Part shown: positions 1,060 to 52,908 of the stretch, piece after piece
Numbering within the stretch: position 1 is the stretch's first letter
How the letters are laid out: each line of letters opens with the position of its first letter
From: Squalus acanthias
Taxonomy: Eukaryota
Length of the DNA: 64,000 nucleotides
Assembly: GCA_030390025.1 (NCBI GenBank)
Contig: JASTWF010000327.1
Coordinates: 124,001-188,000 of the forward strand
Reading direction: 5' to 3'
Notes under the pieces: model-generated
The model's input: only the letters and a program-made list of their open reading frames with translations
What the model was told of the DNA's origin: nothing
Database searches by the model: none
Translations under genes and position numbers: made by a program

Positions 1060-1255
1060 GTAACGGGATGAGTTAAAGGTATTTACTCAGACGGGCGGAA
1101 GGTGGGAAGTGGTGTTCCACGGGGATCGGTGCTGGGACCACTGTTGTTCACCATTTACATGAATGATTTGGACTCGGGAATCAGAGGTACAATTTCAAAA
1201 TTTGCTGATGACACTAAATTGGGGGGTGTAGTTAATACTGAGGAAGACTGCGATA
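1060..1255 (+). mobile_element. CR1 LINE reverse transcriptase fragment
   Basis: GVPRGSVLGPLLFTIYMNDL...[11 protein letters not shown] motifs. Confidence 0.85.
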
Positions 1256-1904: not shown

Positions 1905-2030
1905 CAAAGGTCGCTACAAACTTCCCTTAACTCCAACCCTCTGATTTCTGTTTTGTAGCCAGCTTTCCATCCATTCTGCTGCCTGGCCCTTCACTCCACA
2001 CGGCCTGACCTTGGTCATCTTCTAGATCTG
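1905..2030 (-). mobile_element. Degenerate CR1 fragment
   Basis: Similar to the minus-strand CR1 remnant at 39065-39150 (EWMERWLQ region). Confidence 0.55.
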
Positions 2031-2039
2031 ACATACTGT

Positions 2040-3135: not shown

Positions 3136-4454
3136 TGTCTTCTGACTCCTGACACAGCTGGAAAAGCTTTTACTATTATTACCACAATTGTGCAGCATCT
3201 TCATTTCCAAATATCTCTGAGCTTCTCTAATGGCTGCTTTTGTCTCCCTCAATTGTGGGTGATATTTGTCCCTATTCTCCTGTAAACTGAACTCACCTTG
3301 ATCTGAACTGGGTTCAATGTAAGACAGTTCGGGGAGTCAGGAATCATTCACCCCGAGACCTACGCTGGCCGGTAAAACCCCAGACGGTTCCTCAGTAAGG
3401 ATTCCTCTGGTTCCTCAGCATATATTTGTCAGGATAACAAAACCCAGCTTTCTTACCGTCCACTCCTGGAGGCCCCACTCCCTGAGCCTACAACCTTCAG
3501 CAGGGTCAGTGGTGGAGTTCCACAGCGGGAGTGATCCCAGAGTAACTGTCGGGATCGCACCCCCGTGGATGTTCCGGTCGTGTATTTTTAGTTATCCTGG
3601 TGTCTAACACACACACATCAATAAAACAGGGAATTCCTGGAAACACGCTGCAGGTCCTTCTTTATCTGGAGATCAAATGTCTGTTGTATAATTGTACCAG
3701 CAGTTAACAGGCTCCTGTGAACTCCTCCCTCTGCTATTTTAATGCAGACTTTAAAATAAATTGGTTAAACGGGTTTATTTTAAATGAGTTAATACCTGCC
3801 TTAAAATGGTAGACTCAGGACTGTCAGACAAACACGTTAAATCTTCATAGAATAATTACCACAGTCATTTTTAAACTAGAAACTTAAACCTGCCGTTTCA
3901 CTTTCAGTCAGGAACAGATCGCAGTTTTACACCAATCTCTGATTTGACAGCACGTTTCCAGCATTCACCGTTGTTCTTCCTGACTCTAAACACAGTTGTA
4001 AAGGAGCCTTCTGTTCCATGCCTAGGAGCTCTGAACCATGGAAGAGAGCGGCTGGGACACATTTCTTACACACCTCAAGATTAACCCACACGGGGACTTT
4101 GCTGTCAGTGAAGAGAGACGAGAAAGACCAAAGTGCCGTTTGCCCCTCTCAGTGTGGCCCTGAAGGACTGTGTCCAGGCTGAAGTTCTGTTCCCGCCGTA
4201 CGATCCTCCCCCAGATTGTCCTTTCTGAGCTCCAGCCAGGTGATGCTAAACACTCAGGTGGGAAAGAAGAAAATCTACAACAATGTGTTTAAAACAAAGC
4301 TGATTTATTTGACATATATCCAGAATATTAAACTCCAGCCCAGTTATAGGGGTTATTAACATCAGCAGAAACAAACCCCAACTGTCAGAATGAACATGAT
4401 TCAGTCCTGGATGTGATTAACAGCAGCAATAACAGCAGAATCCAACCCCTGCAG
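3115..4454 (-). repeat. ZNF 3' flank duplicated in inverted orientation at ~40976-42280, and partly at 52909-53298
   Basis: Reverse complement aligns by eye along the whole length, e.g. 3120 TAACTCTGTGTAACTATGTCTTCTG vs 42250 CAGAAGACATAGTTACACAGAGTTA. Includes minus-strand AATAAA at 4304-4309. Confidence 0.92.
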
Positions 4455-5375
4455 TCACTTGTGAACTTGATGGTGTCTCAGCAGGTTGGATTTCCGAATG
4501 AATCCCTTCCCACATACTGAGCAGGTGAACGGCCTCTCCCCAGTGTGAATACGTTGGTGTCCCAGCAGATCCTTTTTGCTTTTAAATCTCTTCTCACAGT
4601 CAGAACATGTAAAAGGTCTCTTATCAGAGTGAACTCGCTGGTGTCTCAGCAGGTTTGATGACCGAATGAATCCCTTCCCACACACGGAGCAGGTGAACGG
4701 CCTCTCCCCAGTGTGAGTGCGCTGGTGTACAGTGAGTTCAGATGATCGCCTGAACCCAGTCCCGCAGTGAGAGCACCTGAACGGTCTTTCGTCAGTGTGA
4801 ACAGTTTGATGGCATGTCAGTTCCCCGGAACTTTTATAGCACTTCCCACAGTCCGGGCATTTAAAAGGTCTCTCGTCAGTGTGAACTCGCCAGTGCTTCA
4901 GCAGAGTGGATGAATTAATAAATCCTTTCCCACACTCGGAGCAGGTGAAGGATCTCGCCCCAGAGTTACTACGCTGGTGTCTCAGCAGATCACTTCTGCT
5001 TTTAAATCTCTTCTCACAATCAGAACATTTAAAAGGTCTCTTATCAGTGTGAACAAGTTGGTGTGTTAGCAGGTGGGATGACTGAGTGAATCCCTTCCCA
5101 CACACGGAGCAGGTGAACGGCCTCTCCCCAGTGTGAACTCGCCGGTGTGTCAGCAGGGCGGATGACTGAGTGAATCCATTCCCACACACAGAGCAGGTGA
5201 ACGGCCTCTCCCCAGTGTGAACAAGTTGGTGTGTCAGCAGGTGGGATAACTGAGTGAATCTCTTACCACACACGGAGCAGGTGAACGGCCTCTCCTCGGT
5301 GTGAACTCGCTGGTGTCTCAGCAGGTGGGATGAACGAGTGAATCCCTTCCCACACTCAGAGCAGGTGAACGGCAT
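4455..5375 (-). CDS. ZNF-B 3' frame: C2H2 zinc-finger protein, 306 aa, 11 fingers (one lacks the last His); probably part of a frameshifted gene
   Basis: Tandem CxxC...HxxxH fingers with TGERPF linkers; the ATG lies in a linker position (SEMPF). Confidence 0.7.
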
Positions 5376-5920
5376 CTCACTGGTGTGAACTCGTGCGATG
5401 ATGCCCTGAACCTCTTCCCACAGTGAGAGCAGTTGAACAATGTGTAACCGCTGTGAATGTGCTGGTGCTCTATCAGTGTCTCAGGGCGTTTAAAGCTCTT
5501 CACCCACTCGATGCATTTAAACTCTCTCTCGTTAGTGTGAGCCCACTGATGTATCAGCAGGGCAGAGAAATAAGTGCATCTCTTGCCACAGACAGAGCAG
5601 GTGAACGGTCTCTCCCCGGTGTGATTGCACCGTTGGGTTTCCAGCTCAGACGGATATTTGAATCCTTTCCCACAATCCCCACATTTACACCGTTTCTCCC
5701 CGGTGTGACTGCGCTTGTGTCTCGACAGGCCACAGGATCGGCTGAAGCCTCGTCCACACACACAACACGTGTACGGTTTCTCCCTGCTGTGAACGGTGCT
5801 TTTTGCTTCCGCGTTCAAAGGCCGATGATATTCAGGTCCGATGAATCGAGTGACTTTGTCAGATCTTGATGCGATGTTTGGTTTGAGCTTCCCGTCTGCT
5901 AATCCTCCTCTTCTAATAGC
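5376..5920 (-). pseudogene. ZNF-B 5' part of exon: leader plus 4-5 partly degenerate fingers, out of frame with the 3' ORF
   Basis: Acceptor TTCATTTTACAG precedes 5920. About 16 nt are deleted in the finger RASS^(H)RVH near 5395. The ATG found in ZNF-E (AACATGGAAGCA) reads AACGCGGAAGCA here. Confidence 0.8.
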
Positions 5921-6224
5921 CTGTAAAATGAATTTAAAACAGGAAAAAGGGAGTGTGAGAGAGAACCCACAAAAAAACAAAGGCAGGTTGTGAAATTGAG
6001 CTCAATGAATCTGGTCATTTGTGGGGCCGGCACTAGAAAAAAGTGACCATGAAAGCTGCTGGATTGTCATAAAAACCCAACTGGTTCACTAATGTCCTTC
6101 AGAGAAGGGAATCCGCCACCCAGTCTGGGCCTACACGTGACTCTAGCCTCTATGGGAGGAGAGAGAGAGGTTGTCGTTGGGGGGGGGCGGGACGCGTGGA
6201 AGGGTCAAAAGAAAGGGTCTTTAT

Positions 6225-7709: not shown

Positions 7710-7755
7710 TGACACAAAGACAATGGCTCATCACTCTGCACCTATAGTAGTTAAA

Positions 7756-10700
7756 GTCAGGGTAGGGCTAGGTCACTGAGGGATGAAGGAGGCGAGTGTG
7801 CAGTGGAGAGTCAGGGTCGGGCTAGGTCACTGAGGGATGAAGGAGGCGAGTGTGCAGTGGAGAGTCAGGGTCGGGCTAGGTCACTGAGGGATGAAGGAGT
7901 CGAGTGTGCAGTGGAGAGTCACAGTCGGGCTAGGTCACTGAGGGATGAAGGAGGCGAGTGTGCAGTGGAGAGTCAGTGTAGGGCTAGGTTACTGCGGGAT
8001 GAAGGAGGCAAGTGTGCAGTGGAGAGTCAGGGTCGGGCTAGGTCACTGAGGGATGAAGGAGGCGAGTGTGCAGTGGAGAGTCAGGGTTGGGCTAGGTCAC
8101 TGAGGGATGAAGGAGGCGAGTGTGCAGTGGAGAGTCAGGTTGGGCTAGGTCACTGAGGGATGAAGGAGGTGAGTGTGCAGTGCAGAGTCAGGGTCGGGCT
8201 AGGTCACTGAGGGATGAAGGAGATGAGTGTGCAGTGGAGAGTCAGGGTAGGGCTAGGTCACTGAGGGATGAAGGAGGCGAGTGTGCAGTGGAGAGTCAGG
8301 GTAGGCTAGGTCACTGAGGGATGAAGGAGGCGAGTGTGCAGTGGAGAGTCAGGGTCGGGCTAGGTCACTGAGGGATGAAGGAGGCGAGTGTGCAGTGGAG
8401 AGTCAGGGTCGGGCTAGGTCACTGAGGGATGAAGGAGGCGAGTGTGCAGTGGAGAGTCAGGGTCGGGCTAGGTCACTGAGGGATGAAGGAGGCGAGTGTG
8501 CAGTGGAGAGTCAGGGTCGGGCTAGGTCACTGAGGGATGAAGGAGGCGAGTGTGCAGTGGAGAGTCAGGGTCGGGCTAGGTCACTGAGGGATGAAGGAGG
8601 CGAGTGTGCAGTGGAGAGTCAGGGTAGGGCTAGGTCACTGAGGGATGAAGGAGGCGAGTGTGCAGTGGAGAGTCAGGGTCGGGCTAGGTCACTGAGGGAT
8701 GAAGGAGGCGAGTGTGCAGTGGAGAGTCAGGGTCGGCTAGGTCACTGAGGGATGAAGGAGGCGAGTGTGCAGTGGAGAGTCAGGGTCGGGCTAGGTCACT
8801 GAGGGATGAAGGAGGCGAGTGTGCAGTGGAGAGTCAGGGTCGGGCTAGGTCACTGAGGGATGAAGGAGGCGAGTGTGCAGTGGAGAGTCAGGGTCAGGCT
8901 AGGTCACTGAGGGATGAAGGAGGCGAGTGTGCAGTGGAGAGTCAGGGTAGGGCTAGGTCACTGAGGGATGAAGGAGGCGAGTGTGCAGTGGAGAGTCAGG
9001 GTCGGGCTAGGTCACTGAGGGATGAAGGAGGCGAGTGTGCAGTGGAGAGTCAGGGTCGGGCTAGGTCACTGAGGGATGAAGGAGGCGAGTGTGCAGTGGA
9101 GAGTCAGGGTCGGGCTAGGTCACTGAGGGATGAAGGAGGCGAGTGTGCAGTGGAGAGTCAGGGTCGGGCTAGGTCACTGAGGGATGAAGGAGGCGAGTGT
9201 GCAGTGGAGAGTCAGGGTCGGGCTAGGTCACTGAGGGATGAAGGAGGCGAGTGTGCAGTGGAGAGTCAGGGTCGGGCTAGGTCACTGAGGGATGAAGGAG
9301 GCGAGTGTGCAGTGGAGAGTCAGGGTCGGGCTAGGTCACTGAGGGATGAAGGAGGCGAGTGTGCAGTGGAGAGTCAGGGTCGGGCTAGGTCACTGAGGGA
9401 TGAAGGAGGCGAGTGTGCAGTGGAGAGTCAGGGTCGGGCTAGGTCACTGAGGGATGAAGGAGGCGAGTGTGCAGTGGAGAGTCAGGGTCGGGCTAGGTCA
9501 CTGAGGGATGAAGGAGGCGAGTGTGCAGTGGAGAGTCAGGGTCGGGCTAGGTCACTGAGGGATGAAGGAGGCGAGTGTGCAGTGGAGAGTCAGGGTCGGG
9601 CTAGGTCACTGAGGGATGAAGGAGGCGAGTGTGCAGTGGAGAGTCAGGGTCGGGCTAGGTCACTGAGGGATGAAGGAGGCGAGTGTGCAGTGGAGAGTCA
9701 GGGTCGGGCTAGGTCACTGAGGGATGAAGGAGGCGAGTGTGCAGTGGAGAGTCAGGGTCGGGCTAGGTCACTGAGGGATGAAGGAGGCGAGTGTGCAGTG
9801 GAGAGTCAGGGTCGGGCTAGGTCACTGAGGGATGAAGGAGGCGAGTGTGCAGTGGAGAGTCAGGGTCGGGCTAGGTCACTGAGGGATGAAGGAGGCGAGT
9901 GTGCAGTGGAGAGTCAGGGTCGGGCTAGGTCACTGAGGGATGAAGGAGGCGAGTGTGCAGTGGAGAGTCAGGGTCGGGCTAGGTCACTGAGGGATGAAGG
10001 AGGCGAGTGTGCAGTGGAGAGTCAGGGTCGGGCTAGGTCACTGAGGGATGAAGGAGGCGAGTGTGCAGTGGAGAGTCAGGGTCGGGCTAGGTCACTGAGG
10101 GATGAAGGAGGCGAGTGTGCAGTGGAGAGTCAGGGTCGGGCTAGGTCACTGAGGGATGAAGGAGGCGAGTGTGCAGTGGAGAGTCAGGGTCGGGCTAGGT
10201 CACTGAGGGATGAAGGAGGCGAGTGTGCAGTGGAGAGTCAGGGTCGGGCTAGGTCACTGAGGGATGAAGGAGGCGAGTGTGCAGTGGAGAGTCAGGGTCG
10301 GGCTAGGTCACTGAGGGATGAAGGAGGCGAGTGTGCAGTGGAGAGTCAGGGTCGGGCTAGGTCACTGAGGGATGAAGGAGGCGAGTGTGCAGTGGAGAGT
10401 CAGGGTCGGGCTAGGTCACTGAGGGATGAAGGAGGCGAGTGTGCAGTGGAGAGTCAGGGTCGGGCTAGGTCACTGAGGGATGAAGGAGGCGAGTGTGCAG
10501 TGGAGAGTCAGGGTCGGGCTAGGTCACTGAGGGATGAAGGAGGCGAGTGTGCAGTGGAGAGTCAGGGTCGGGCTAGGTCACTGAGGGATGAAGGAGGCGA
10601 GTGTGCAGTGGAGAGTCAGGGTCGGGCTAGGTCACTGAGGGATGAAGGAGGCGAGTGTGCAGTGGAGAGTCAGGGTCGGGCTAGGTCACTGAGGGATGAA

Positions 10701-11382
10701 GGAGGCGAGTGTGCAGTGGAGAGTCAGGGTCGGGCTAGGTCACTGAGGGATGAAGGAGGCGAGTGTGCAGTGGAGAGTCAGGGTCGGGCTAGGTCACTGA
10801 GGGATGAAGGAGGCGAGTGTGCAGTGGAGAGTCAGGGTCGGGCTAGGTCACTGAGGGATGAAGGAGGCGAGTGTGCAGTGGAGAGTCAGGGTCGGGCTAG
10901 GTCACTGAGGGATGAAGGAGGCGAGTGTGCAGTGGAGAGTCAGGGTCGGGCTAGGTCACTGAGGGATGAAGGAGGCGAGTGTGCAGTGGAGAGTCAGGGT
11001 AGGGCTAGGTCACTGAGGGATGAAGGAGGCGAGTGTGCAGTGGAGAGTCAGGGTCGGGCTAGGTCACTGAGGGATGAAGGAGGCGAGTGTGCAGTGGAGA
11101 GTCAGGGTAGGGCTAGGTCACTGAGGGATGAAGGAGGCGAGTGTGCAGTGGAGAGTCAGGGTCGGGCTAGGTCACTGAGGGATGAAGGAGGCGAGTGTGC
11201 AGTGGAGAGTCAGGGTCGGGCTAGGTCACTGAGGGATGAAGGAGGCGAGTGTGCAGTGGAGAGTCAGGGTCGGGCTAGGTCACTGAGGGATGAAGGAGGC
11301 GAGTGTGCAGTGGAGAGTCAGGGTCGGGCTAGGTCACTGAGGGATGAAGGAGGCGAGTGTGCAGTGGAGAGTCAGGGTCGGG
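7756..11382. repeat. 54-bp minisatellite (GAGTCAGGGTCGGGCTAGGTCACTGAGGGATGAAGGAGGCGAGTGTGCAGTGGA), about 67 copies
   Basis: Exact 54-bp period; variants cluster at the left end and the core is homogeneous. Confidence 0.98.
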
Positions 11383-11423
11383 CTCGCCTCCTTCATCCCT
11401 CAGTGACCTCACTCTGCCCTGAC

Positions 11424-12060
11424 ACGCGCCCAGGGGGGCGGGATCTGACCCGCCGCTTCAGGTCGCACCCAACAGAGGCCCCGCCCCTTACTGATCAGCC
11501 CCACGTGACCCTCTCCGGCGGTCCGCACCGCGCATGCTCAGGACACACACGGTGGGACCTGTCAATCATCCACCCCTGCGTCTGCGCGCTGGGCTCCGGA
11601 GCTGCAGGCTGCTGCGCGGGACTTTCTTTGTAAAGTCGGATGTTCGTTCAGAGCCGAGATCAGTGAGAGAAAGTGAGTTTTCCCCGAGATCCGATTGAGA
11701 TCAGAGGCGGGGAGAGAATAAAGGGAAACACAAACCTGAGAGTCCGTGGATCCGGGCCCCGAGCCGAGCTTCTGCAGTTTGGCGGAGCGCACTCTAGGGA
11801 CACGTGACCCGGGCCCACCGCGTGATTGACGGGAGCTACCGACCAATAGGGAGCGAGTGGGGCGGGGCTGGAGGACCGAGCCGGCGGCGGGTCCTCCAAC
11901 CAATCGGGGAGCCAGAGGGGCGGGACTAGCGCCGGCTGATTGTCTGATCCGCGGGGCAGCGAGTTTCTCCAGTCCCTTGTTCAGGGCCCGGGGCCAGGGG
12001 AGGCTGTGGGCCTTTATTCCCCTTATTGGACACAAGGCTCTTTGGCTCACAACACACTGG
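11424..12060 (+). promoter_or_regulatory. CpG-island promoter / putative non-coding first exon
   Basis: GC boxes (CCCCGCCCC, GGGGCGGGG), E-boxes CACGTG (~11502, ~11801), CCAAT boxes (~11843, ~11900), NRF1-like CGCGCATGCTC, and donor AAA|GTGAGT at 11673. Confidence 0.65.
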
Positions 12061-14195: not shown

Positions 14196-14430
14196 CTCCA
14201 GTGCTATAATAGTTTATTTGATCAATACTGCACCCCTCCTTTTCTCCTTTCCTATCTTTCCTGAATACCTTGTAGCTAGGAATATCGAGTTCCCAATCCC
14301 CCCTTGTTTGAGCCAGCTCTCTGTTATTGCCACTATATCATAGTCCCATGTGGGTACTTGTGCCTGCAGTTCACCAATGTTATGTACCACGCTCCGTGCA
14401 TTTACACACATGCACTCCAACTCCATCTTA
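14195..14430 (-). mobile_element. CR1 ORF2 N-terminal endonuclease fragment
   Basis: CMCVNARSV...YDIVAITESWL. Confidence 0.8.
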
Positions 14431-14599
14431 GAATGCCTCAAACCTGGCCCCTGTCTGATCCCTCCTATGTCCGAATATTAAAAATTCTTTATATAGTGAT
14501 TTTGTTTATTGCTCCTCCGGCCCCAACTTCAATGGGATGACAAAACATCTGTCCACCAATTGGGGATGTAAATGGTGGTGAATTAACCCAGAATCCTCC

Positions 14600-15000
14600 G
14601 CGAGGTGTAAAGTGCCCCATCAGTGACGACAGGAGCCCAGTGCGCCGGCGCAGTAACTGGGTGTGCTCTGAGCATGCGCAGTGCGTGTGGTGCTGTTGGA
14701 TTAGGCGGGACAGCGGCCGGGAGGCGGGAGGAGATCATGGTCGGAGATTGTGGTCGCAGGGGATGGATTGGACCAGCGCGTGAGTTTAAAAGCTTAAAAA
14801 CACCTGGTGTAGGCCTGAGGCCCCGAATAAGAGCCCACAAGCTCCGTGTTTTCCCGGTTACAGGCCCGGTCCGTGACCGCCCGGGTGATCCGGGTCACTG
14901 GCCGCCATCTTGGACAGGACGGGTCTCACGGCGCATGCGCGGTACATTGGCCAGGAACAAAGAGTGGGCGGGGCTTCAGGGTCTCTGTCAGTTTGATTGG
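14600..15000 (+). promoter_or_regulatory. CpG-island promoter / first exon of ZNF-C
   Basis: NRF1-like GCATGCGCA (~14673) and GCGCATGCGC (~14932), YY1 GCCGCCATCTTG (~14901), GC box, donor GC|GTGAGT at 14780. Homologous to 39650-40010. Confidence 0.75.
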
Positions 15001-15414
15001 ACCACATGTTTCTCCCATATTATTGGCCCCTGAAAGGGAGCCTTGTTGGGCTGATTCTTGTTTGGTGACCCTGGGGCGACCCAGTCTCACCCTATTGGTC
15101 CATCCAAAAAGGCCCAGTGACCAGGAGAGAAAACCAGCAGCTCATTAATTTTATTCTCACTCTGCACACAGCGGGTGTGGAACTGAACCCAACCAGAGTA
15201 GAGGGAGGAGAAAACTGGGAGTGGAGGAAAGAAATGTTGGAGATGGTGCGATGGGTTTGGATTTCAGCACAGGGAGGAGGGAGAGTGTGTGGGACGGGGA
15301 TTTACAGCTTTGGGGGAACAAGAGAGGAAAGAATGTTCCATAGAAACTAGAATTGTCTGTTCTGAATTTCTATCCTGTACTTACAGTGATGACTTTTCTA
15401 AACTCCTTTTATAG

Positions 15415-16453
15415 GTTATTAGAAGGGGAGGATTTACAGACTGGAAGCTCAAGCCAAACATCATGTCAAGATCTGACAGAGTCACTTGATTCATCAGGAC
15501 CTGAATATCATCGGCCTCTGAATGTGGAAGGAGAAATGTTTGTCTGTTCTGTCTGTGGGGAAAGATTTCAGTCATCAGTGTGACTGGAAAAGCACCGAGA
15601 CACACACACCCGAGTGAGAGTGTTCCAGTGCACTGACTGTGGAAAGAGCTTTAACCAGTTACACAGCCTGAAAAATCACCGCACCATTCACTGCGGGGAG
15701 AAACCGTACACGTGTTCTGTGTGTGGACGAGGCTTCAACTGATCGTCCAACCTGGAGAGATACAACGACACCCGCACCACGGACAAACTGTGGAAATGTG
15801 AGGACTGTGGGAAGGGATTCCATTACCCGTCCCAGCTGGAAATTCATCGACGCAGTCACACCGGGGAGAGGCCGTTCAGTTGCTCTCACTGCCTGAAGAC
15901 TTTCAAAGAATCATCCAATCTGTTGAAACACCAGCAAATTCACACTGGGGAGAGGCCGTTCACCTGCTCTGTGTGTGGGAAGGGATTCTCTCAGTCTTCC
16001 CACCTGCTGAAACACCAGCGAGTTCACACTGGGGAGAGACCATTCACCTGCTATATTTGTGGGAAAGGATTCACTCAGTCTTCTAACCTGTTTACACACC
16101 AGCGAGTTCACACCAGGGAGAGACCGTTCACCTGCTATATTTGTGGGAAAGGATTCACTCAGTCTTCTAACCTGCTTACACACCAGCGAGTTCACACTGG
16201 GGAGACGCCGTTCACCTGCTCTATGTGTGGGAAGGGATTCTCTGAATCCTTCCATCTACTGACACACCAGCGAGTTCACACTGACGAGAGACCATTCAGG
16301 TGCTCTCGCTGTGCGAAGACATTTGCCCGTTCATCCAACCTGAAGACACACCAGCGAATTCACACTGGGGAGAGGCCATTCACCTGCTCTGAGTGTGGGA
16401 AGGGATTCACTCAGTCATCCAACCTGCTGACACACCAGCGAGTTCACAAGTGA
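15415..16453 (+). CDS. ZNF-C exon: leader, three interrupted or degenerate fingers with in-frame TGA at 15581 and 15740, then 8 intact C2H2 fingers (15779-16453, 224 aa if begun at ACG). Coding status uncertain.
   Basis: Acceptor CTTTTATAG ends at 15414; one reading frame throughout; family 3' UTR with AATAAA at 16595. Confidence 0.65.
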
Positions 16454-16996
16454 CTGCAGGGGTTGGATTCTGCTGTTATTGCTGCTGTTAATGACATCCA
16501 GGACTGAACCATGTTCATTCTGACAGTTGGGGTTTGTTTCTGCTGATGATAACCCTATAGCAGGGCTGGAGTTTAATATTCTGGATAAATGTCAAATAAA
16601 TCGGCTTTATTTGTCCACTCAGGAAGTGTATTTAACAGAAGATGAACAAGGAAACACATCACGGCCCAATAATCCAGCTCTACATTCACAGGAGAAAGTC
16701 TGTTATCTAACTCCTCGAGTGGACAAGATCAAGAAAGATCCCAAATGTAAGAATTCCATTACACTTTTCTAAATACCTTTCAAAGACTGACCGGTTCCTG
16801 CCTTATTCTAGAATTCCCCATCCCTGTGGGAGTCGATATTGGTCAAAAACTACAAATTGTAAATTTCTAACTGCTTTTTCTCTTTCAGTGTTTCAAGCTG
16901 ACCAGGTCCTTCACTCAGAGAATCTCCAAGGAGACTCTTTGATTTAAACACAGCTCTCCCCTCTTTCATATCCGGGATTAGATTACTGGGAATTTG

Positions 16997-19324: not shown

Positions 19325-22300
19325 AAATACAGTCAGTAACACAGGGCGCTGGGGGAGGGGTTACTGAGTGACAGTGTGAGGGAGCTGGATTAACATCAGT
19401 AGAGATACAGTCAGTAACACAGGGCGCTGGGGGAGGGGTTACTGAGTGACAGTGTGAGGGAGCTGGATTAACATCAGTAGAGATACAGTCAGTAACACAG
19501 GGTGCTGGGGGAGGGGTTACTGAGTGACAGTGTGAGGGAGCTGGATTAACATCAGTAGAGATACAGTCAGTAACACAGGGTGCTGGGGAGAGGGGTTACT
19601 GAGTGACCGTGTGAGGAGCTGGATTAACATCAGTAGAGATACAGACAGTAACACAGGGTGCTGGGGAGAGGGGTTACTGAGTGACAGTGTGAGGGAGCTG
19701 GATTAACATCAGTAGAGATACAGTCAGTAACACAGGTGCTGGGGGAGGGGTTACTGAGTGACGGTGCTGGATTAACATCAGTAGAGATACAGTCAGTAAC
19801 ACAGGGTGCTGGGGGAGGGGTTACTGAGTGACAGTGTGAGGGAGCTGGATTAACATCAGTACAGATACAGTCAGTAACACACGGCGCTGGGGAGAGGGGT
19901 TACTGAGTGACAGTGTGAGGGAGCTGGATTAACATCAGTAGAGATACAGTCAGTAACACAGGGTGCTGGGGGAGGGGTTACTGAGTGACAGTGTGAGGGA
20001 GCTGGATTAACATCAGTAGAGATACAGTCAGTAACACAGGGTGCTGGGGAGAGGGGTTACTGAGTGACAGTGTGAGGGAGCTGGATTAACATCAGTAGAG
20101 ATACAGTCAGTAACACAGGTGCTGGGGGAGGGGTTACTGAGTGACAGTGTGAGGGAGCTGGATTAACATCAGTACAGATACAGTCAGTAACACGGTGCTG
20201 GAGGGAGGGGTAATTGAGTGACAGTGTGAGGGAGCTGGATTAACATCAGTAGAGATACAGTCAGTAACACAGGGTGCTGGGGGAGGGGTTACTGAGTGAC
20301 AGTGTGAGGGAGCTGGATTAACATCAGTAGAGATACAGTCAGTAACACAGGGCGCTGGGGGAGAGGGGTTACTGAGTGACAGTGTGAGGGAGCTGGATTA
20401 ACATCAGTAGAGATACAGTCAGTAACACAGGGCGCTGGGGGAGGGGTTACTGAGTGACAGTGAGGGAGCTGGATTAACATCAGTAGAGATACAGTCAGTA
20501 ACACAGGGCGCTGGGGGAGGGGTTACTGAGTGACAGTGTGAGGGAGCTGGATTAACATCAGTAGAGATACAGTCAGTAACACGGTGCTGGGGGAGGGGTT
20601 ACTGAGTGACGGTGAGGGAGCTGGATTAACATCAGTAGAGATACAGTCAGTAACACAGGGTGCTGGGGGAGGGGTTACTGAGTGACAGTGTGAGGGAGCT
20701 GGATTAACATCAGTAGAGATACAGTCAGTAACACAGGGTGCTGGGGAGGGTTACTGAGTGACAGTGTGAGGGAGCTGGATTAACATCAGTAGAGATACAG
20801 TCAGTAACACAGGTCGCTGGGGAGAGGGGTTACTGAGTGACAGTGTGAGGGAGCTGGATTAACATCAGTAGAGATACAGACAGTAACACAGGGCGCTGGG
20901 GGAGGGGTTACTGAGTGACAGTGTGAGGGAGCTGGATTAACATCAGTAGAGATACAGTCAGTAACACAGGGTGCTGGGGAGAGGGGTTACTGAGTGACAG
21001 TGTGAGGGAGCTGGATTAACATCAGCACAGATACAGACAGTAACACGGTGCTGGGGGAGGGGTTACTGAGTGACAGTGTGAGGGAGCTGGATTAACATCA
21101 GTAGAGATACAGTCAGTAACACAGGGTGCTGGGGGAGGGGTTACTGAGTGACAGTGTGAGGGAGCTGGATTAACATCAGTAGAGATACAGACAGTAACAC
21201 AGGGCGCTGGGGGAGGGGTTACTGAGTGACAGTGTGAGGGAGCTGGATTAACATCAGTAGAGATACAGTCAGTAACACAGGGCGCTGGGGGAGGGGTTAC
21301 TGAGTGACAGTGTGAGGGAGCTGGATTAACATCAGTAGAGATACAGTCAGTAACACAGGGTGCTGGGGGAGGGGTTACTGAGTGACAGTGTGAGGGAGCT
21401 GGATTAACATCAGTAGAGATACAGTCAGTAACACAGGGCGCTGGGGGAGAGGGTTACTGAGTGACAGTGTGAGGAGCTGGATTAACATCAGTAGAGATAC
21501 AGTCAGTAACACAGGGCTGCTGGGGGAGGGGTTACTGAGTGACAGTGTGAGGGAGCTGGATTAACATCAGTAGAGATACAGTCAGTAACACAGGGCGCTG
21601 GGGAGAGGGGTTACTGAGTGACAGTGTGAGGGAGCTGGATTAACATCAGTAGAGATACAGTCAGTAACACAGGGCGCTGGGGGAGGGGTTACTGAGTGAC
21701 AGTGTGAGGGAGCTGGATTAACATCAGTAGAGATACAGTCAGTAACACAGGGTGCTGGGGGAGGGGTTACTGAGTGACAGTGTGAGGGAGCTGGATTAAC
21801 ATCAGTAGAGATACAGTCAGTAACACAGGGTGCTGGGGGAGGGGTTACTGAGTGACAGTGTGAGGGAGCTGGATTAACATCAGTACAGATACAGTCAGTA
21901 ACACAGGGCGCTGGGGGAGGGGTACTGAGTGACAGTGTGAGGGAGCTGGATTAACATCAGTAGAGATACAGTCAGTAACACACGGCGCTGGGGGGAGGGG
22001 TTACTGAGTGACAGTGTGAGGGAGCTGGATTAACATCAGTAGAGATACAGTCAGTAACACGGCGCTGGGGGAGGGGTTACTGAGTGACAGTGTGAGGGAG
22101 CTGGATTAACATCAGTAGAGATACAGTCAGTAACACAGGGCGCTGGGGGAGGGGTTACTGAGTGACAGTGAGGGAGCTGGATTAACATCAGTAGAGATAC
22201 AGACAGTAACACAGGGTGCTGGGGGAGGGGTTACTGTGTGACAGTGTGTGGGAGCTGGATTAACATCTGTAGAGATACAGTCAGTAACACATGGCGCTGG

Positions 22301-25300
22301 GGGAGAGGGGTTACAGAGTGACAGTATGAGGGGGATGGATTAACCTCAGTCGAGATACAATCAGTAACACAGGGCGCTGGGGGAGGGGTTACTGTATGAC
22401 CGTGAGGGAACTGGATTAACATCAGTAGAGATACAGTCAGTAACACAGGGCGCTGGGGGGAGGGGTTACTGAGTGACAGTGTGAGGGAGCTGGATTAACA
22501 TCAGTACAGATACAGACAGTAACACAGGGCGCTGGGGGAAGGGTTACTGAGTGATAGTTTGAGGGAGCTGGATTAACATCAGTAGAGATACAGACAGTAA
22601 CACAGGGTGCTGGGGGAGGGGTTACTGAGTGACAGTGTGAGGGAGCTGGATTAACATCAGTACAGATACAGTCAGTAACACGGTGCTGGAGGGAGGGGTA
22701 ATTGAGTGATAATGTGAGGGAGCTGGATTAACATCAGTAGAGATACAGTCAGTAACACACGGCGCTGGTGGGGAGGGGTTACTGAGTGACAGTGTGAGGG
22801 AGCTGGATTAACATCAGTAGAGATACAGTCAGTAACACAGGCGCTGGGGGAGGGGTTACTGAGTGACAGTGTGAGGGAGCTGGATTAACATCAGTAGAGA
22901 TACAGACAGTAACACAGGGTGCTGGGGGAGGGGTTACTGAGTGACAGTGTGAGGGAGCTGGATTAACATCAGTAGAGATACAGTCAGTAACACAGGGTGC
23001 TGGGGGAGGGGTTACTGAGTGACAGTGTGAGGGAGCTGGATTAACATCAGTAGAGATACAGTCAGTAACACAGGGTGCTGGGGGAGGGGTTACTGAGTGA
23101 CAGTGTGAGGGAGCTGGATTAACATCAGTAGAGATACAGTCAGTAACACAGGGTGCTGGGGGAGGGGTTACTGAGTGACAGTGTGAGGGAGCTGGATTAA
23201 CATCAGTAGAGATACAGTCAGTAACACAGGGTGCTGGGGAGAGGGTTACTGAGTGACAGTGTGAGGGAGCTGGATTAACATCAGTAGAGATACAGTCAGT
23301 AACACAGGGTGCTGGGGGAGGGGTTACTGAGTGACAGTGTGAGGGAGCTGGATTAACATCAGTAGAGATACAGTCAGTAACACAGGGTGCTGGGGGAGGG
23401 GTTACTGAGTGACAGTGTGAGGGAGCTGGATTAACATCAGTAGAGATACAGTCAGTAACACAGGGTGCTGGGAGAGGGGTTACTGAGTGACAGTGTGAGG
23501 GAGCTGGATTAACATCAGTAGAGATACAGTCAGTAACACAGGGTGCTGGGGGAGGGGTTACTGAGTGACAGTGTGAGGGAGCTGGATTAACATCAGTAGA
23601 GATACAGTCAGTAACACAGGGTGCTGGGGGAGGGGTTACTGAGTGACAGTGTGAGGGAGCTGGATTAACATCAGTAGAGATACAGTCAGTAACACAGGGT
23701 GCTGGGGAGAGGGGTTACTGAGTGACAGTGTGAGGGGTCTGGATTAACATCAGTACAGATACAGTCAGTAACACGGTGCTGGAGGGAGGGGTAATTGAGT
23801 GACAGTGTGAGGGAGCTGGTTTAACATCAGTACAGATACAGTCAGTAACACACGTCGCTGGGGGAGAGGGGTTACTGAGTGACAGTGTGAGGGAGCTGGA
23901 TTAACATCAGTAGAGATACAGTCAGTAACACAGGATGCTGGGGGAGCGGTTACTGTGTGACCGTGTGTGGGAGCTGGATTAACATCTGTAGAGATACAAT
24001 CAGTAACACAGGGCGCTGGGGGAGGGGTTACTGTATGACCGTGAGGGAACTGGATTAACATCAGTAGAGATACAGTCAGTAACACAGGGCGCTGGGGGGA
24101 GGGGTTACTGAGTGACAGTGTGAGGGAACTGGATTAACGTCAGTAGAGATACAGTCAGTAACACGGTGCTGGGGGAGGGGTTACTGAGTGACGGTCAGGG
24201 AGCTGGATTAACATCAGTAGAGATACAGTCAGTAACACAGGGTGCTGGGGGAGGGGTTACTGAGTGACAGTGTGAGGGAGCTGGATTAACATCAGTACAG
24301 ATACAGTCAGTAACACGGTGCTGGAGGGAGGGGTTACTGAGTGATAGTGTGAGGGAGCTGGATTAACATCAGTAGAGATACAGTCAGTGACACAGGGTGC
24401 TGGGGGACGGGTTACTGAGTGACAGTGTGAGGGAGCTGGATTAACATCAGCAGAGATACAGTCAGTAACACAGGGTGCTGGGGGAGGGGTTACTGAGTGA
24501 CAGTGTGAGGGAGCTGGATTAACATCAGTACAGATACAGTCAGTAACACAGGGTGCTGGGGGAGGGGTTACTGAGTGACAGTGTGAGGGAGCTGGATTAA
24601 CATCAGTAGAGATACAGTCAGTAACACAGGGCGCTGGGGGAGGGGTTACTGAGTGACAGTGTGAGGGAGCTGGATTAACATCAGTAGAGATACAGTCAGT
24701 AACACAGGGTGCTGGGGAGAGGGGTTACTGAGTGACAGTGTGAGGGAGCTGGATTAACATCAGTAGAGATACAGTCAGTAACACGGTGCTGGGGGAGGGG
24801 TTACTGAGTGACAGTGTGAGGGAGCTGGATTAACATCAGTACAGATACAGTCAGTAACACGGTGCTGGAGGGAGGGGTTACTGAGTGACAGTGTGAGGGA
24901 GCTGGATTAACATCAGTACAGATACAGACAGTAACACGGTGCTGGGGGAGTGGTTACTGAGTGACAGTGTGAGGGAGCTGGATTAACATCAGTAGAGATA
25001 CAGTCAGTAACACAGGGTGCTGGGGGAGAGGTTACTGAGTGACAGTGTGACGTAACTGGATTAACATCAGTAGAGATATAGTCAGTAACACAGGGTGCTG
25101 GGGGAGGCGTTACTGAGTGACAGTGTGAGTAACTGGATTAACTTCAGTTGAGATACAGTCAGTAACACAAGGTGCTGAGGGAAGGGTTACTGTGTGACAG
25201 TGTGAGGGAGCTGGATTAACATCAGTAGAGATACAGACAGTAACACAGGGTGCTGGGGAGAGGGTTACTGAGTGACAGTGTGAGGGAGCTGGATTAACAT

Positions 25301-28300
25301 CAGTAGAGATACAGTCAGTAACACGGTGCTGGGGGAGGGGTTACTGAGTGACAGTGTGAGGGAGCTGGATTAACATCAGTAGAGATACAGACAGTAACAC
25401 AGGGTGCTGGGGGAGGGGTTACTGAGTGACAGTGTGAGGAGCTGGATTAACATCAGTAGAGATACAGTCAGTAACACAGGGTGCTGGGGGAGGGGTTACT
25501 GAGTGACAGTGTGAGGGAGCTGGATTAACATCAGTAGAGATACAGACAGTAACACAGGGTGCTGGGGGAGGGGTTACTGAGTGACAGTGTGAGGGAGCTG
25601 GATTAACATCAGTAGAGATACAGTCAGTAACACAGGGTGCTGGGGGAGGGGTTACTGAGTGACAGTGTGAGGGAGCTGGATTAACATCAGTAGAGATACA
25701 GTCAGTAACACAGGGCGCTGGGGGAGAGGGGTTACTGAGTGACAGTGTGAGGGAGCTGGATTAACATCAGTAGAGATACAGTCAGTAACACAGGGCGCTG
25801 GGGGAGGGGTTACTGAGTGACAGTGTGAGGGAGCTGGATTAACATCAGTAGAGATACAGTCAGTAACACAGGGCGCTGGGGGAGGGGTTACTGAGTGACA
25901 GTGTGAGGGAGCTGGATTAACATCAGTAGAGATACAGTCAGTAACACGGTGCTGGGGGAGGGGTTACTGAGTGACAGTGTGAGGGAGCTGGATTAACATC
26001 AGTAGAGATACAGTCAGTAACACAGGGTGCTGGGGGAGGGGTTACTGAGTGACAGTGTGAGGGAGCTGGATTAACATCAGTAGAGATACAGTCAGTAACA
26101 CAGGGTGCTGGGGGAGGGGTTACTGAGTGACAGTGTGAGGGAGCTGGATTAACATCAGTAGAGATACAGTCAGTAACACAGGTCGCTGGGGGAGAGGGGT
26201 TACTGAGTGACAGTGTGAGGGAGCTGGATTAACATCAGTAGAGATACAGTCAGTAACACAGGGCGCTGGGGGAGGGGTTACTGAGTGACAGTGTGAGGGA
26301 GCTGGATTAACATCAGTAGAGATACAGTCAGTAACACAGGGTGCTGGGGAGAGGGGTTACTGAGTGACAGTGTGAGGGAGCTGGATTAACATCAGTACAG
26401 ATACAGACAGTAACACAGGTGCTGGGCGGAGGGGTTACTGAGTGACAGTGTGAGGGAGCTGGATTAACATCAGTAGAGATACAGACAGTAACACAGGGCG
26501 CTGGGGGAGGGGTTACTGAGTGACAGTGTGAGGGAGCTGGATTAACATCAGTAGAGATACAGTCAGTAACACAGGGCCTGGGGGAGGGGTTACTGAGTGA
26601 CAGTGTGAGGGAGCTGGATTAACATCAGTAGAGATACAGTCAGTAACACAGGGTGCTGGGGGAGAGGGTTACTGAGTGACAGTGTGAGGGAGCTGGATTA
26701 ACATCAGTAGAGATACAGTCAGTAACACAGGGCGCTGGGGGAGAGGGTTACTGAGTGACAGTGTGAGGAGCTGGATTAACATCAGTAGAGATACAGTCAG
26801 TAACACAGGGTGCTGGGGAGAGGGGTTACTGAGTGACAGTGTGAGGGAGCTGGATTAACATCAGTAGAGATACAGACAGTAACACAGGGCGCTGGGGGAG
26901 GGGTTACTGAGTGACAGTGTGAGGGAGCTGGATTAACATCAGTAGAGATACAGTCAGTAACACAGGGCGCTGGGGGAGGGGTTACTGAGTGACAGTGTGA
27001 GGGAGCTGGATTAACATCAGTAGAGATACAGTCAGTAACACAGGGTGCTGGGGGAGAGGGTTACTGAGTGACAGTGTGAGGGAGCTGGATTAACATCAGT
27101 AGAGATACAGTCAGTAACACAGGGCGCTGGGGGAGAGGGTTACTGAGTGACAGTGTGAGGGAGCTGGATTAACATCAGTAGAGATACAGTCAGTAACACA
27201 GGGCCTGGGGAGAGGGGTTACTGAGTGACAGTGTGAGGGAGCTGGATTAACATCAGTAGAGATACAGTCAGTAACACAGGGCGCTGGGGAGAGGGGTTAC
27301 TGAGTGACAGTGTGAGGGAGCTGGATTAACATCAGTAGAGATACAGACAGTAACACAGGGCGCTGGGGGAGGGGTTACTGAGTGACAGTGTGAGGGAGCT
27401 GGATTAACATCAGTAGAGATACAGTCAGTAACACAGGGTGCTGGGGGAGGGGTTACTGAGTGACAGTGTGAGGGAGCTGGATTAACATCAGTAGAGATAC
27501 AGTCAGTAACACAGGGTGCTGGGGGAGGGGTTACTGAGTGACAGTGTGAGGGAGCTGGATTAACATCAGTAGAGATACAGTCAGTAACACAGGGCGCTGG
27601 GGGAGGGGTTACTGAGTGACAGTGTGAGGGAGCTGGATTAACATCAGTAGAGATACAGTCAGTAACACAGGGTGCTGGGGGAGGGGTTACTGAGTGACAG
27701 TGTGAGGGAGCTGGATTAACATCAGTAGAGATACAGTCAGTAACACAGGGCGCTGGGGGAGGGGTTACTGAGTGACAGTGTGAGGGAGCTGGATTAACAT
27801 CAGTAGAGATACAGTCAGTAACACAGGGCGCTGGGGGAGGGGTTACTGAGTGACAGTGTGAGGGAGCTGGATTAACATCAGTAGAGATACAGTCAGTAAC
27901 ACAGGGTGCTGGGGGAGGGGTTACTGAGTGACAGTGTGAGGGAGCTGGATTAACATCAGTAGAGATACATTCAGTAACACAGGGCACTGGGGAAAGGGGT
28001 TTCTGAGTGACAGTGTGGGGGAGCTGGATTAACATCAGTAGAGATACAGTCAGTAACACAGGGCGCTGGGGGAGGGGTTACTGAGTGACAGTGTGAGGGA
28101 GCTGGATTAACATCAGTAGAGATACAGTCAGTAACACAGGGTGCTGGGGGAGGGGTTACTGAGTGACAGTGTGAGGGAGCTGGATTAACATCAGTAGAGA
28201 TACAGTCAGTAACACAGGTGCTGGGGGAGGGGTTACTGAGTGACAGTGTGAGGGAGCTGGATTAACATCAGTAGAGATACAGTCAGTAACACAGGCGCTG

Positions 28301-40010: not shown

Positions 40011-40079
40011 CAGGAGAGACAATCATTGACTCATTGATTTTATTCTCACTCTGCACACAGCGGGTGTCTCACCATTTTC

Positions 40080-40975
40080 ATAAAGGATTTCAAACATCAG
40101 AGTGACTGGAAAATCACCGAGACACACACACCCGAGTGAGAGTGTTCCAGTGCACTGACTGTGGAAAGAGCTTTAACCAGTTACACAGCCTGAAAAAACA
40201 TCGCACCATTCACAGCGGGGAGAAACCGTACACGTGTTCTGTGTGTGGACGAGGCTTCAACTGATCGTCCAACCTGGAGAGACACAAGGACACCCGCACC
40301 ACGGAGAAACCGTGTAAATGTGGGGACTGTGGGAAGGGATTCAATTACCCATCCCAGCTGGAAATTCATCGGCGAATTCACACCGGAGAGAGGCCGTTCT
40401 CCTGCTCCATGTGTGGCAAGGGATTCACAGAGTTATCCAAGCTTCATATACACATGCGAATTCACACCGGGGACAGGCCGTTCCCCTGCTCCGTCTGTGG
40501 GAAGGGATTCGCTCAGTTATCCACCCTGCTGACACACCAGCGAGTTCACACTGAGGAGAGACCATTTAAATGTTCCGAGTGTGAGAAGAGTTTTAAAAGT
40601 AGAAGCGATGTCCTGACACACCAACGCACTCACACTGGGGAGAGGCCATTCACCTGCTCCGAGTGTGGCAAGGGATTCACTCAGACATCCACCCTGCGGA
40701 AACACCAGCGAGTTCACACTGGGGAGAGGCCGTTCACCTGCTCAGTGTGTGGGAAGGGATTCACCCATTCATCCCACCTGTTGACACACCGGCGAGTTCA
40801 CACCGGGGAGAGGCCGTTCACATGCTCTGTGTGTGGAAGGGGATTCACTCAAAGATCCAGCCTGCTGGCACACCAACGACTTCACACTGGGGAGAGGCCG
40901 TACACCTGCTCCGTGTGTGAGAAAGGATTTACTCGGTCAGCTAACCTGGTGACTCACCAGCGAGTTCACAAGTAA
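40080..40975 (+). CDS. ZNF-D: degenerate leader fingers with TGA at 40103 and 40262, then 8 intact C2H2 fingers (40301-40975, 224 aa if begun at ACG; first ATG at 40409 is inside finger 2). Coding status uncertain.
   Basis: Manual translation in one frame; family 3' UTR with AATAAA at 41120. Confidence 0.62.
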
Positions 40976-42280
40976 CTGCAGCGTTGGATTCTGCTGTTAT
41001 TGCTGCTGTTAATCACATCCAGGACTGAACCATGTTCATTCTGACAGTTGGGGTTTGTTTCTGCTGATGTTAATAACTCCTGTAACTGGGCTGGAGTTTA
41101 ATATTTTGGATAGATGTCAAATAAATCAGCTTTGTGTTAAACACATTGTTATAGATTTTTGTCTTTCCCACCTGAGCGTTTAGCATCACCTGGCTGGAGC
41201 TCAGAAAGGACAATCTGGGGGAGGATCGTACGGCGGGAACAGAACTTCAGCCTGGACACAGTCCTTCAGGGCCACACTGAGAGGGGCAAACGGCACTTTG
41301 GTCTTTCTCGTCTCTCTTCACTGACAGCAAAGTCCCCGTGTGGGTTAATCTTGAGGCCTGTAAGAAATGTGTCCCAGCCGCTCTCTGCCATGGTTCAGAG
41401 CTCCTAGGCACAGAACAGAAGGATCCTTTACAACTGTGTTTAGAGTCAGGAAGAACAACGGTGAATGCTGGAAACGTGCTGTCAAATCAGAGATTGGTGT
41501 CAAACTGCGATCTGTTCCTGACTGAAAGTGAAACAGGTTTAAGTTTCCAGTCTAAAAATGACTGTGGTAATTATTCTACGAAGGTTTAATGTGTTTGTGT
41601 GACAGTCCTGAGTCTACCATTATAAGGCAGGTTAAAATAAATCGGTTAAATTCTGCACTAAAATAGCAGTCGGAGGAGTTCACAGGAGCCTGTTAACTGC
41701 TGGTACAATTATACAACAGACATTTGATCTCCAGATAAAGAAGGACCTGCAGCGTGTTTCCAGGAATTCCCTGTTTTATTGGTGTGTGTGTGTTAGACAC
41801 CAGGATAACTAAAAATACACGACCCGGAACATCCACGGGGTGCGATCCCGACAGTTACTCTGGGATCACTCCCGCTGCGGAACTCCACCACTGACCCTGC
41901 TGAAGGTTGTAGGCTCAGGGAGTGGGGCCTCCAGGAGTGGACTGTAAGAAAGCTGGGTTTCAGTATCCTGACAAATATATGATGAGGAACCAGAGGAATC
42001 CTTACTGAGGAACCGTCTTACCTGCCAGCGTAGGTCTCGGGGTGAATGACTCCTGACTCCCCGAACTGTCTTACATTGAACCCAGTTCAGATCAAGGTGA
42101 GTTCAGTTTATGGGAGAATAGGGACAAATATCACCCACAATTGAGGGAGTCAAAGGCAGCCATGAGAGAGGCTAAGAGATCTTTGGAAATAAAGATGGTT
42201 CACAATTGTGGTAACAATAGTAAAAGCTTTTCCAGCTATGTCAGGAGGCAGAAGACATAGTTACACAGAGTTACATAGAT
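40976..42280 (+). repeat. ZNF 3' UTR plus flank, inverted paralog of 3115-4454
   Basis: Aligns by eye over about 1.3 kb and ends at the L2 insertion. Confidence 0.9.
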
Positions 42281-51175: not shown

Positions 51176-51534
51176 ATCCTTCACCTTCGCCCCCGCCCAC
51201 CTCTCTCTCTCCCATAAATGCCGGAGTCTTGTGTTAGCCCAGACCGGATGGCGGGTTCCCATCCCTGAAGGACATTAGTGAACCTGACAGCTTTCATAGT
51301 CACTTTTTCCTAGTGCAGTCCCCACAAATGACCAGATTCATTAAGCTCAATTTCACAACCTGTCCCTGTTTTTTTCTGGGTTCTCTCTCATGCTCCCTTT
51401 TTCTTGTTTGAAATTCATTTTACAGGATATTAGAAAGGGAGGATTTGAAGACGGGAAGCTCAAACCAAACAGCACATCAAGATCTGACCGAGTCACTCAA
51501 TTAACTGGGACCTGAATATCATCCGCCTTTGAAC

Positions 51535-52908
51535 ATGGAAGCAAGAAGCAACCTTCACAGCGGGGAGAAACCGTACCCGTGTTCTTTATATGGACAAGGC
51601 TTCAGCCAACCCTCTGGCCTGTCGAAACACAAGCGAGTTCACACCGGGGACAGCCCGTTCACCTGCTCTGAGTGTGGGAAGGGATTCACTCAGTCATCCC
51701 GCCTACTGATACACCAGCGAGTTCACACCGGGGAGAGGCCGTTCACCTGCTCTGAGTGTGGGAAGGGTTTTACTCAGTCATCCCACCTACTGATACACCA
51801 GCAAGTTCACACTGGGAAGAGGCTGTTCACATGCTCTGAGTGTGGAAAGGGATTCACTCAGTCATCCGACCTTGTGAAACACCAGCGAGTTCACACTGGG
51901 GAGAGGCCATTCACCTGCCCTGTGTGTGGGAAGGGATTCAATCGTTCATCCCACCTGCTGACACACCAGCGCGTTCACACTGACGAGAGACCTTTTAAAT
52001 GCCCGGACTGTGGGAAGTGCTTCAAAAGTTCTGGGGGACTGACATGCCATCAACTTGTTCACACTGACGAGAGACCGTTCAGGTGCTCTCACTGCGGGAC
52101 TGGGTTCAGGCGATCATCTGAACTCACTGTACACCAGCGCACTCACACTGGGGAGAGGCCATTCACCTGCTCCGTGTGTGGGAAGGGATTCACTCGTTCA
52201 TCCTACCTGCTGACACACCAGCGCATTCACAGTGATGAGAGACCTTTTAAATGCCCGGACTGTGGGAAGTGCTTTAAAAGTTCTGGGGAACTGACACGCC
52301 ATCAACATCTTCACACTGACGAAAGGCCATTCAGGTGCTCTCACTGTGGGACTGGGTTCAGGCGATCATCTGACCTCACTGTACACCAGCGCACTCACAC
52401 TGGGGAGAGACCATTCACCTGTTCCGTGTGTGGGAAGGGATTCACTCAGTCATCCAACCTGCTGACACACCAGCACATTCACACTGATAAGAGACCTTTT
52501 AAATGTTCTTACTGTGAGAAGAGATTAATAAGCAAAAAGGATCTGCTGAGACACCAGCGAGTTCACACTAGGGAGAGACTGTTCACCTGCTCTGAGTGTG
52601 GGAAGGGATTCACTCGGTCATCCGACCTTCTGAAACACCAGCAAGTTCACACTGGGGAGAAGCCGTTCACCTGCTCTAAGTGTGGGAAGGGATTCACTCA
52701 GTCATCCAACCTGCTGACACACCAGCGAGTTCACACTGGGGAGAGGCCGTTCACCTGCTCTGTCTGTGGGATGGGATTCAGTCAGACAACAAACCTGCTG
52801 ACACACCAGCGAGTTCACACTGGGGAGAGGCCGTTCACCTGCTCTGAGTGTGGGAAGGGATTCACTCGGTCATCCCACCTGCTGAAACACCAGCGAGTTC
52901 ACATGTGA
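51535..52908 (+). CDS. ZNF-E: C2H2 zinc-finger protein, 457 aa, 15 intact plus 1 degenerate finger, no KRAB/SCAN/BTB domain visible
   Basis: Acceptor TTCATTTTACAG ends at 51425; ATG in AACATGG context at 51535; open frame to TGA; AATAAA at 53054. Confidence 0.88.

Follow-up and report, generated by a model that had tools for sequence, protein, structure and literature searches.

The two TGA-interrupted fingers and the intact one between them that precede the coding arrays of ZNF-C and ZNF-D are, with moderate probability, a 5′ UTR inherited together with its stop codons by mosaic paralogs of a shark poly-C2H2 expansion. Under this explanation, ZNF-C and ZNF-D would be members of a single subfamily within a shark poly-C2H2 family of high copy number. 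The three leading fingers of its large exon would have died early, through two stops and the loss of the second His of finger 3. Translation would have shifted to the next codon, the Met of MEKPWKC, turning the dead fingers into transcribed 5′ UTR, and this leader would have been copied along with each duplication or exchange, its two TGAs coming from a common template rather than being retained for recoding. The 97% identity between the two leaders would then stem from tandem paralogs having been duplicated, or having exchanged segments, recently and in a genome that mutates slowly (the available text of PMC10587355 gives a shark mutation rate of 7e-10 per generation), with the finger arrays diverging fast. 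The layout, the control comparisons and the residues of the paralogs are observed directly; from them we infer start-site use, the transcription of ZNF-C and ZNF-D and the mechanism of exchange.

Five C2H2 units (ZNF-A to ZNF-E), the homologues of which are shark proteins, lie among LINE-like ORFs and tandem repeats in the window, by which we mean the whole 64-kb stretch of DNA that was analysed (Table 1). The finger frame of ZNF-C is open from the splice acceptor up to the first TGA (TGA1), and from the acceptor to its end it is interrupted by the two TGAs only. Vestigial finger 1 is broken by TGA1 (15581-15583), finger 2 is intact and finger 3 is broken by the second TGA (TGA2, 15740-15742); finger 3 lacks its second His in both ZNF-C and ZNF-D, and in ZNF-C the first His is also gone. 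In ZNF-B and ZNF-E the shared 5′ part of the exon is followed directly by one finger, before which two more fingers are inserted in ZNF-C and ZNF-D. Pfam recognizes eight zf-C2H2 stretches in each of the ZNF-C and ZNF-D main frames; an accessory domain is absent from the ZNF-C main frame among the Pfam rows shown, and neither KRAB nor another accessory domain appears in the best 25 Pfam rows for the exon-2 frames. The ACG of ZNF-D at 40301 has A at -3 and G at +4, as in ZNF-C, and the next in-frame ATG downstream lies at 16223 in ZNF-C and at 40409 in ZNF-D. ZNF-D has no counterpart of ~15179-15560 and therefore possesses neither the splice acceptor nor the upstream ATGs. It also lacks 14984-15112, and as a similar skip is found in sequencing runs X1, X19 and X23, this is a family variant and not private to ZNF-D.

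Table 1 Features of ZNF-C and ZNF-D and of the sister units ZNF-B and ZNF-E
Feature	Positions	Strand	Remarks
ZNF-B	4455..5945	-	Sister subfamily without the two inserted fingers; frameshifted; CGA at TGA2 site
Promoter-like CpG island, ZNF-C	14487..14983	.	Homologous to ZNF-D 39533-40002; most diverged shared non-coding segment
Polypyrimidine tract and AG acceptor of large ZNF exon	15395..15414	+	AG at 15413-15414; same acceptor aligned in ZNF-B and ZNF-E
5′ part of ZNF-C exon	15415..15535	+	Finger frame open; common to B/E subfamily, 12-17% mismatches
Out-of-frame uORF	15522..15617	+	31 codons; weak start context (T at -3, T at +4)
In-frame uORF ending at TGA1	15536..15583	+	15 codons; ZNF-C only among C and D
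Three vestigial C2H2 fingers, ZNF-C	15536..15778	+	Three Pfam zf-C2H2 stretches with TGAs as X
ACG at usual Met site of shark paralogs (MEKPWKC start)	15779..15781	+	A at -3, G at +4
ZNF-C main frame	15779..16453	+	224 codons, 8 C2H2 fingers
ZNF-C 3′ UTR	16454..16608	+	Common to all five window units; in-frame 17-codon open tail after TGA-CTG stop
ZNF-D junction	40068..40082	+	Replaces ~380 nt of ZNF-C: intron end, acceptor, 5′ exon, both uATGs
ZNF-D leader	40083..40300	+	TGA at 40103 and 40262
ZNF-D main frame	40301..40975	+	Starts ACG; 224 codons, 8 fingers, TAA stop
ZNF-D 3′ flank	41134..42197	+	96% identical to ZNF-B flank (other subfamily)
ZNF-E	51411..52908	+	Sister subfamily; ATG where ZNF-C has GTG; CAA at TGA2 site

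Several minor features of the window were recorded alongside these units. The promoter-like island of ZNF-C reaches a CpG observed/expected ratio of 0.77-0.95 (200-nt windows starting at 14600-14800), and at 14899-14945 and 39919-39960 both copies carry a GC box, CCAAT boxes, an NRF1-like palindrome and a motif resembling YY1 when read on the minus strand; transcription from the promoter may run in both directions. Within the ZNF-C intron, 15247-15402 matches 48662-48826 in reverse at 81% and is probably a repeat, and one contig from run X4 matches 15232-15343 over 112 nt with zero differences. The regions ~7750-11500 and ~21000-35100 are long tandem repeat arrays with strong GC skew, which produces spurious long ORFs.

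The initial annotation described the leader as hyper-conserved. Its count was accurate: 15580-15783 and 40102-40305 differ at 6 of 204 nucleotides without gaps (15592, 15676, 15679, 15692, 15761 and 15766). In line with its remark on the promoters and recognition helices, the promoter (74/458 mismatches and 18 gaps; p = 2e-7 against the leader), finger 1 (10/93; p = 0.010) and the finger array (about 21% diverged) are all more diverged between ZNF-C and ZNF-D. The same is true of the intron piece that these two units share (7/66 mismatches, p = 0.019) and of the intron end of ZNF-B and ZNF-E (40/347, p = 0.0003), and the greater likeness of the leader relative to the promoter, intron piece, finger 1 and B–E intron end counts against an inherited 5′ UTR. 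However, other non-coding DNA of the family is just as alike: the 3′ UTR of ZNF-C and ZNF-D (9/157 mismatches and three gaps, p = 0.20 against the leader), the 3′ flank of ZNF-D and ZNF-B past the poly(A) signal (43/1063 or 4.0%, p = 0.56 against 6/204) and the DNA upstream of ZNF-B and ZNF-E (84/1408). Mismatch in the 3′ UTR is 3.4-5.2% in the seven other pairs compared among ZNF-A to ZNF-E, and six or fewer mismatches are present in 335 of 860 overlapping 204-nt windows of the D–B flank and in 530 of 1205 of the B–E upstream DNA. Leader identity is thus higher than that of the C–D promoter and no higher than that of the 3′ UTR and 3′ flank; the proposal that the leader is former finger-coding DNA holds, and it is now most likely 5′ UTR, but the exceptional conservation ascribed to it is not supported by these controls.

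On these comparisons the units are evidently mosaics of segments of different age, and 3% lies within the range of their non-coding DNA. ZNF-D groups with ZNF-C at the leader and with ZNF-B and ZNF-E at the 3′ flank. This joining of a C-type leader to a B/E-type flank makes segment exchange between paralogs a good explanation, in line with the gene-conversion alternative offered at the outset. The C–D array differences comprise 61 of 168 nt in the recognition helices versus 93 of 504 nt in the framework; paralogous poly-ZF genes are described in the available text of PMC2604467 as diverging at DNA-contact residues and showing short conversion tracts. ZNF-B (4455-6001), though frameshifted, resembles the Heterodontus protein P0276 in unusual fingers, and the region upstream of ZNF-B and ZNF-E is also present in P0276, which together suggest an old sub-lineage.

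Both TGAs lie in the frame of the downstream fingers and at matching places in the two units (15581 and 15740 in ZNF-C, 40103 and 40262 in ZNF-D), as first reported; TGA2 is followed by TCG. To follow them in other sharks, 20 chondrichthyan proteins were scanned, giving 27 first-finger matches: eight of the B/E type, three N-terminal Met starts (MEKPWKC; P0037 from Cetorhinus, P0143 and P0195 from Heterodontus) and 16 with leader remains. Among these 16 segments, the residue at the ACG position is Met in eight, Thr in four, Ile in two and another in two, and only one (P0147, with Arg) is read in frame across the TGA2 site. The P0173 model skips the whole leader, and the remaining 13 models enter downstream of the TGA2 site, which fits a closed leader and is no proof of a stop; models entering exactly at SSNL require an AG that is absent from the TGA context. 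Off-frame translations of Heterodontus proteins were also informative, with both TGAs present in P0215 and TGA2 present in P0195, where 31 of 36 residues match ZNF-D. In Scyliorhinus P0004 the codon is TGG, for Trp, at both TGA sites. The stops are not universal, TGA1 being present in one of two and TGA2 in two of four readable copies outside the window. Dead finger 3 is found in Galeomorphii and in one squalomorph (P0018), and this, with the P0195 match, indicates that the leader is old.

The origin of each stop could be considered separately. CpG decay from CGA, which the initial annotation invoked for the stops, is plausible for TGA2, where ZNF-B has CGA and P0147 has Arg; at TGA1, where the one homologue with an open frame has Trp, no such origin was shown. 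Since the CTG that follows TGA1 encodes the conserved Leu of the finger, the leaky-looking context requires no particular explanation. At the start site, the Thr residues occur in Heterodontus and Pristiophorus, so that ACG may have been kept rather than have decayed from ATG, and ZNF-C and ZNF-D may on this basis be either start-less or weakly initiating at ACG. The ACG in both units, together with acceptor loss in ZNF-D, likewise points to start-less or weakly translated copies; weak initiation at ACG may occur in both.

The reach of these searches differed. DNA pattern scans gave zero matches in viral contigs, metagenomes and prokaryote genomes. A protein search with the leader (167-534 aa) returned 2/2 candidates, one shark, and is a weak blank, the search with the downstream finger having also returned few shark proteins, and in a profile search of representative sequences long finger arrays crowded out the other hits, leaving nine fused shark models of use. 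RefSeq annotation of the family looks unreliable: P0129, P0143, P0147, P0150, P0173, P0195, P0215, P0216, P0252 and P0276 are models in which several tandem ZNF genes are joined to one another and to repeat and antisense DNA.

In place of passive inheritance, the leader could be a selected translational control cassette, in which TGA1 leaves a uORF of 15 codons in place of the old N-terminus and so doses many ZNF proteins at once, ribosomes leaking past it or reinitiating ~195 nt downstream at a strong-context ATG and more weakly at ACG. We regard this as unlikely. Start contexts were judged against the Kozak consensus, and ZNF-C has two upstream ATGs in weak to moderate context and then no ATG in any frame until 15796, although ATG is rare in finger arrays anyway (two in the ZNF-C main frame region). 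As annotated, the ATG at 15536 opens 15 codons that end at TGA 15581, followed by CTG; the uORF is not common to ZNF-C and ZNF-D, as ZNF-D has lost it along with the other upstream ATG. In Heterodontus P0215 the first upstream ATG and TGA1 are both present, a Met standing in the off-frame part at the place matching the 15522 uORF start, but in P0173 the Met that starts the 15-codon uORF is replaced by Ile, and P0004 is open at TGA1. Further in favour of a cassette, RNA-like runs cover the leader (a weak hint) and ACG is a known near-cognate start (available text of PMC5666671); against it, 200 nt need not be fixed for the sake of a uORF, which requires just a start, a stop and spacing.

Leaders of the ATF4/GCN4 type combine a short uORF, a long spacer and a main start in strong context, and ZNF-C is alike in these respects. 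The likeness is one of sequence alone; in contrast to those leaders, the ZNF leader derives from dead fingers and its uORF is missing in ZNF-D. A fuller version of the cassette, in which an early stop in sharks made the N-terminal fingers into uORF and spacer, selected across perhaps thousands of genes, with ATG and ACG setting expression tiers and a leaky UGA-CUG terminal stop appending a common tail of 17 residues, would be a shade more doubtful still.

Selection on the leader as DNA or RNA, as a protein-binding or unmethylated CpG element of the subfamily independent of translation, is likewise improbable, at the lower end of what we would grant the cassette. Its CpG observed/expected ratio of 0.71-0.77 forms a local peak over 15600-15900 and exceeds that of the neighbouring UTR parts (0.14-0.15), the arrays (0.43-0.55) and the window (0.34). 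This richness is significant against the window average (P = 0.024) but not against array levels (P = 0.17). No CpG decay separates the ZNF-C and ZNF-D leaders, and a CpG-rich leader without such decay counts against the inherited 5′ UTR; yet in segments from Heterodontus and Carcharodon a Cys or His frequently stands for the Arg codon of dead finger 3, the outcome expected of CpG decay. Almost no synonymous change is seen in the leader, and four organisms, possibly related to one another, agree on the majority letter at every listed leader row. Against an RNA element, the two leaders fold no better than their shuffles (z = 0.46 and 0.00), and in 14400-16800 no Rfam match comes close to its gathering score.

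Programmed readthrough of both stops would give a protein with three extra fingers, the length of which (305 aa) was correctly predicted, and the frame is indeed open from acceptor to end but for the TGAs. TGA1 is UGA-C and the two sites encode Trp or Arg in some paralogs. We nevertheless consider functional double readthrough very unlikely. The six C–D leader changes comprise one synonymous and five non-synonymous, which for so few changes is compatible with neutrality (P = 0.49) and less so with an omega of 0.2 (P = 0.022), and one of the five is the loss of a zinc ligand in ZNF-C. Finger 3 lacks its second His, ZNF-D lacks an upstream ATG and TGA2 is UGA-U. The available text of PMC4615788 gives basal readthrough of 3-4% at UGA-C and values 3-6 times lower at other UGA-N, the product of which puts the double product well under 0.1%, and names UGA-CUAG, not UGA-CUGG, as the strong motif. 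Vertebrate programmed readthrough genes (UGA-CUAG; same source, available text) thus share with the units here the UGA-C at TGA1 and at the terminal stops of ZNF-A, ZNF-B, ZNF-C and ZNF-E, but here the contexts are UGA-CUGG or UGA-CUGC, TGA2 is TGA-TCGT and coding-type constraint past the stops is absent.

Recoding of UGA as selenocysteine, or its A-to-I editing to a Trp codon, is highly improbable: both stops are TGA and one Scyliorhinus paralog has TGG at both sites, but that copy is a genomic gene model, the stop sites are helix positions rather than Cys ligands (homologues have Trp, Arg or Gln codons at the UGAs and not Cys, unlike selenoproteins), no SECIS family was found at E ≤ 5 in 14400-16800 (the one Rfam match is unrelated, at E 3.4 and 17 bits versus 50) and folding gave no stable duplex around the TGAs.

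Sequencing runs were used to place the two copies within the family. Between 29 and 51% of sampled words were present in 24 runs from 11 organisms, and four runs were aligned (X1, X4, X19 and X23, with 2441, 1153, 3109 and 4301 contigs fitted; X1 and X4 are RNA by guess). Over 15571-15821, the majority in all four runs sides with ZNF-D at 11 of the 11 listed sites where ZNF-C differs, so five of the six C–D differences are private to ZNF-C. From the rows listed, ZNF-C is not significantly closer to the cross-run majority in the leader (5/204) than in the 5′ exon part (8/165; p = 0.26). None of the 40 variant rows listed of 163, each with ~96% or more of another letter in some run, falls at either TGA or at the ACG, so these codons are not replaced outright in the runs. 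Depth summed over contigs, which is no measure of copy number or expression and ranks neither genes nor parts of genes, climbs ~92-fold and 39-fold in the two RNA-like runs, and 4.6-fold and 1.9-fold in the two large DNA-like runs, between the final bin of the intron and the first bin lying wholly in the exon. This is a weak hint that the family, not specifically ZNF-C or ZNF-D, may be transcribed and spliced at the 15413-15414 acceptor; exon 1 and a splice joint were not seen among the 15 joints listed of 72. A>G places number 11 of 79 in X1, 13 of 60 in X4, 14 of 101 in X19 and 16 of 109 in X23, and because the organisms of the runs differ these counts say nothing on editing.

The organization inferred here can be set beside those of known families. 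Mammalian KRAB-ZNF and cyprinid FiNZ-ZNF genes (PMC10547256, PMC2604467) are likewise clustered paralogs with the array in one large exon, canonical linkers and helix divergence; they differ from the shark subfamily, in which the N-terminal fingers are dead and apparently untranslated and the 3′ UTR is near-identical across all units. The RefSeq shark models named zinc finger protein 239-, 271- or 850-like (P0037, P0143, P0195 and P0034, starting MEKPWKC or MEGKSTVH) have the same first finger, upstream exon remnant and 3′ tail, whereas ZNF-C and ZNF-D have ACG for the ATG, and fused models skip the leader via probably spurious introns. ORFs with five or more fingers number 703-3586 per shark assembly among the rows listed in the available part of PMC10547256, including 1851 in Carcharodon carcharias and 3586 in Scyliorhinus canicula, and neither 'shark' nor 'chondrichth' occurs in its main text. 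The available portions of PMC8455134 and PMC11603059 hold nothing on the structure of this family, and no description of the leader was found in the literature by title or abstract start, a coverage that mostly leaves out subscription papers.

On the favoured explanation, these results define the architecture of a large shark ZNF subfamily, found in the literature covered only as ORF counts, and account for the invented introns through which RefSeq fuses its genes. The state of the start codon then offers an easy way of flagging copies that may be inactive. Were the uORF or the ACG tiers functional, one shared leader would govern a very large repertoire of transcription factors in sharks; if the cassette were real in full, that repertoire would combine a hypervariable finger array with constant regulatory arms on either side, under joint translational control.

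At the other end of the transcript, the 3′ UTR shows 94-97% identity in eight pairwise comparisons that span the five units and both subfamilies, and is possibly a shared regulatory element; its folding compared with shuffles gave z = -1.44. A Carcharodon model holds an antisense translation of this 3′ UTR (27 of 37 residues). The terminal stop is TGA-CTG in ZNF-A (~548), ZNF-B (~4457, minus strand), ZNF-C (16451-16507 region) and ZNF-E (~52906), and in ZNF-D it is TAA with a 1-nt deletion. The in-frame tail past the stop runs to 17 codons, or 13 in ZNF-A through an in-frame deletion. The Heterodontus models P0150, P0173 and P0276 continue into the tail, with a sense codon in place of the stop. 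These features are suggestive of terminal readthrough, but the changes in the tail among the window copies are non-synonymous only.
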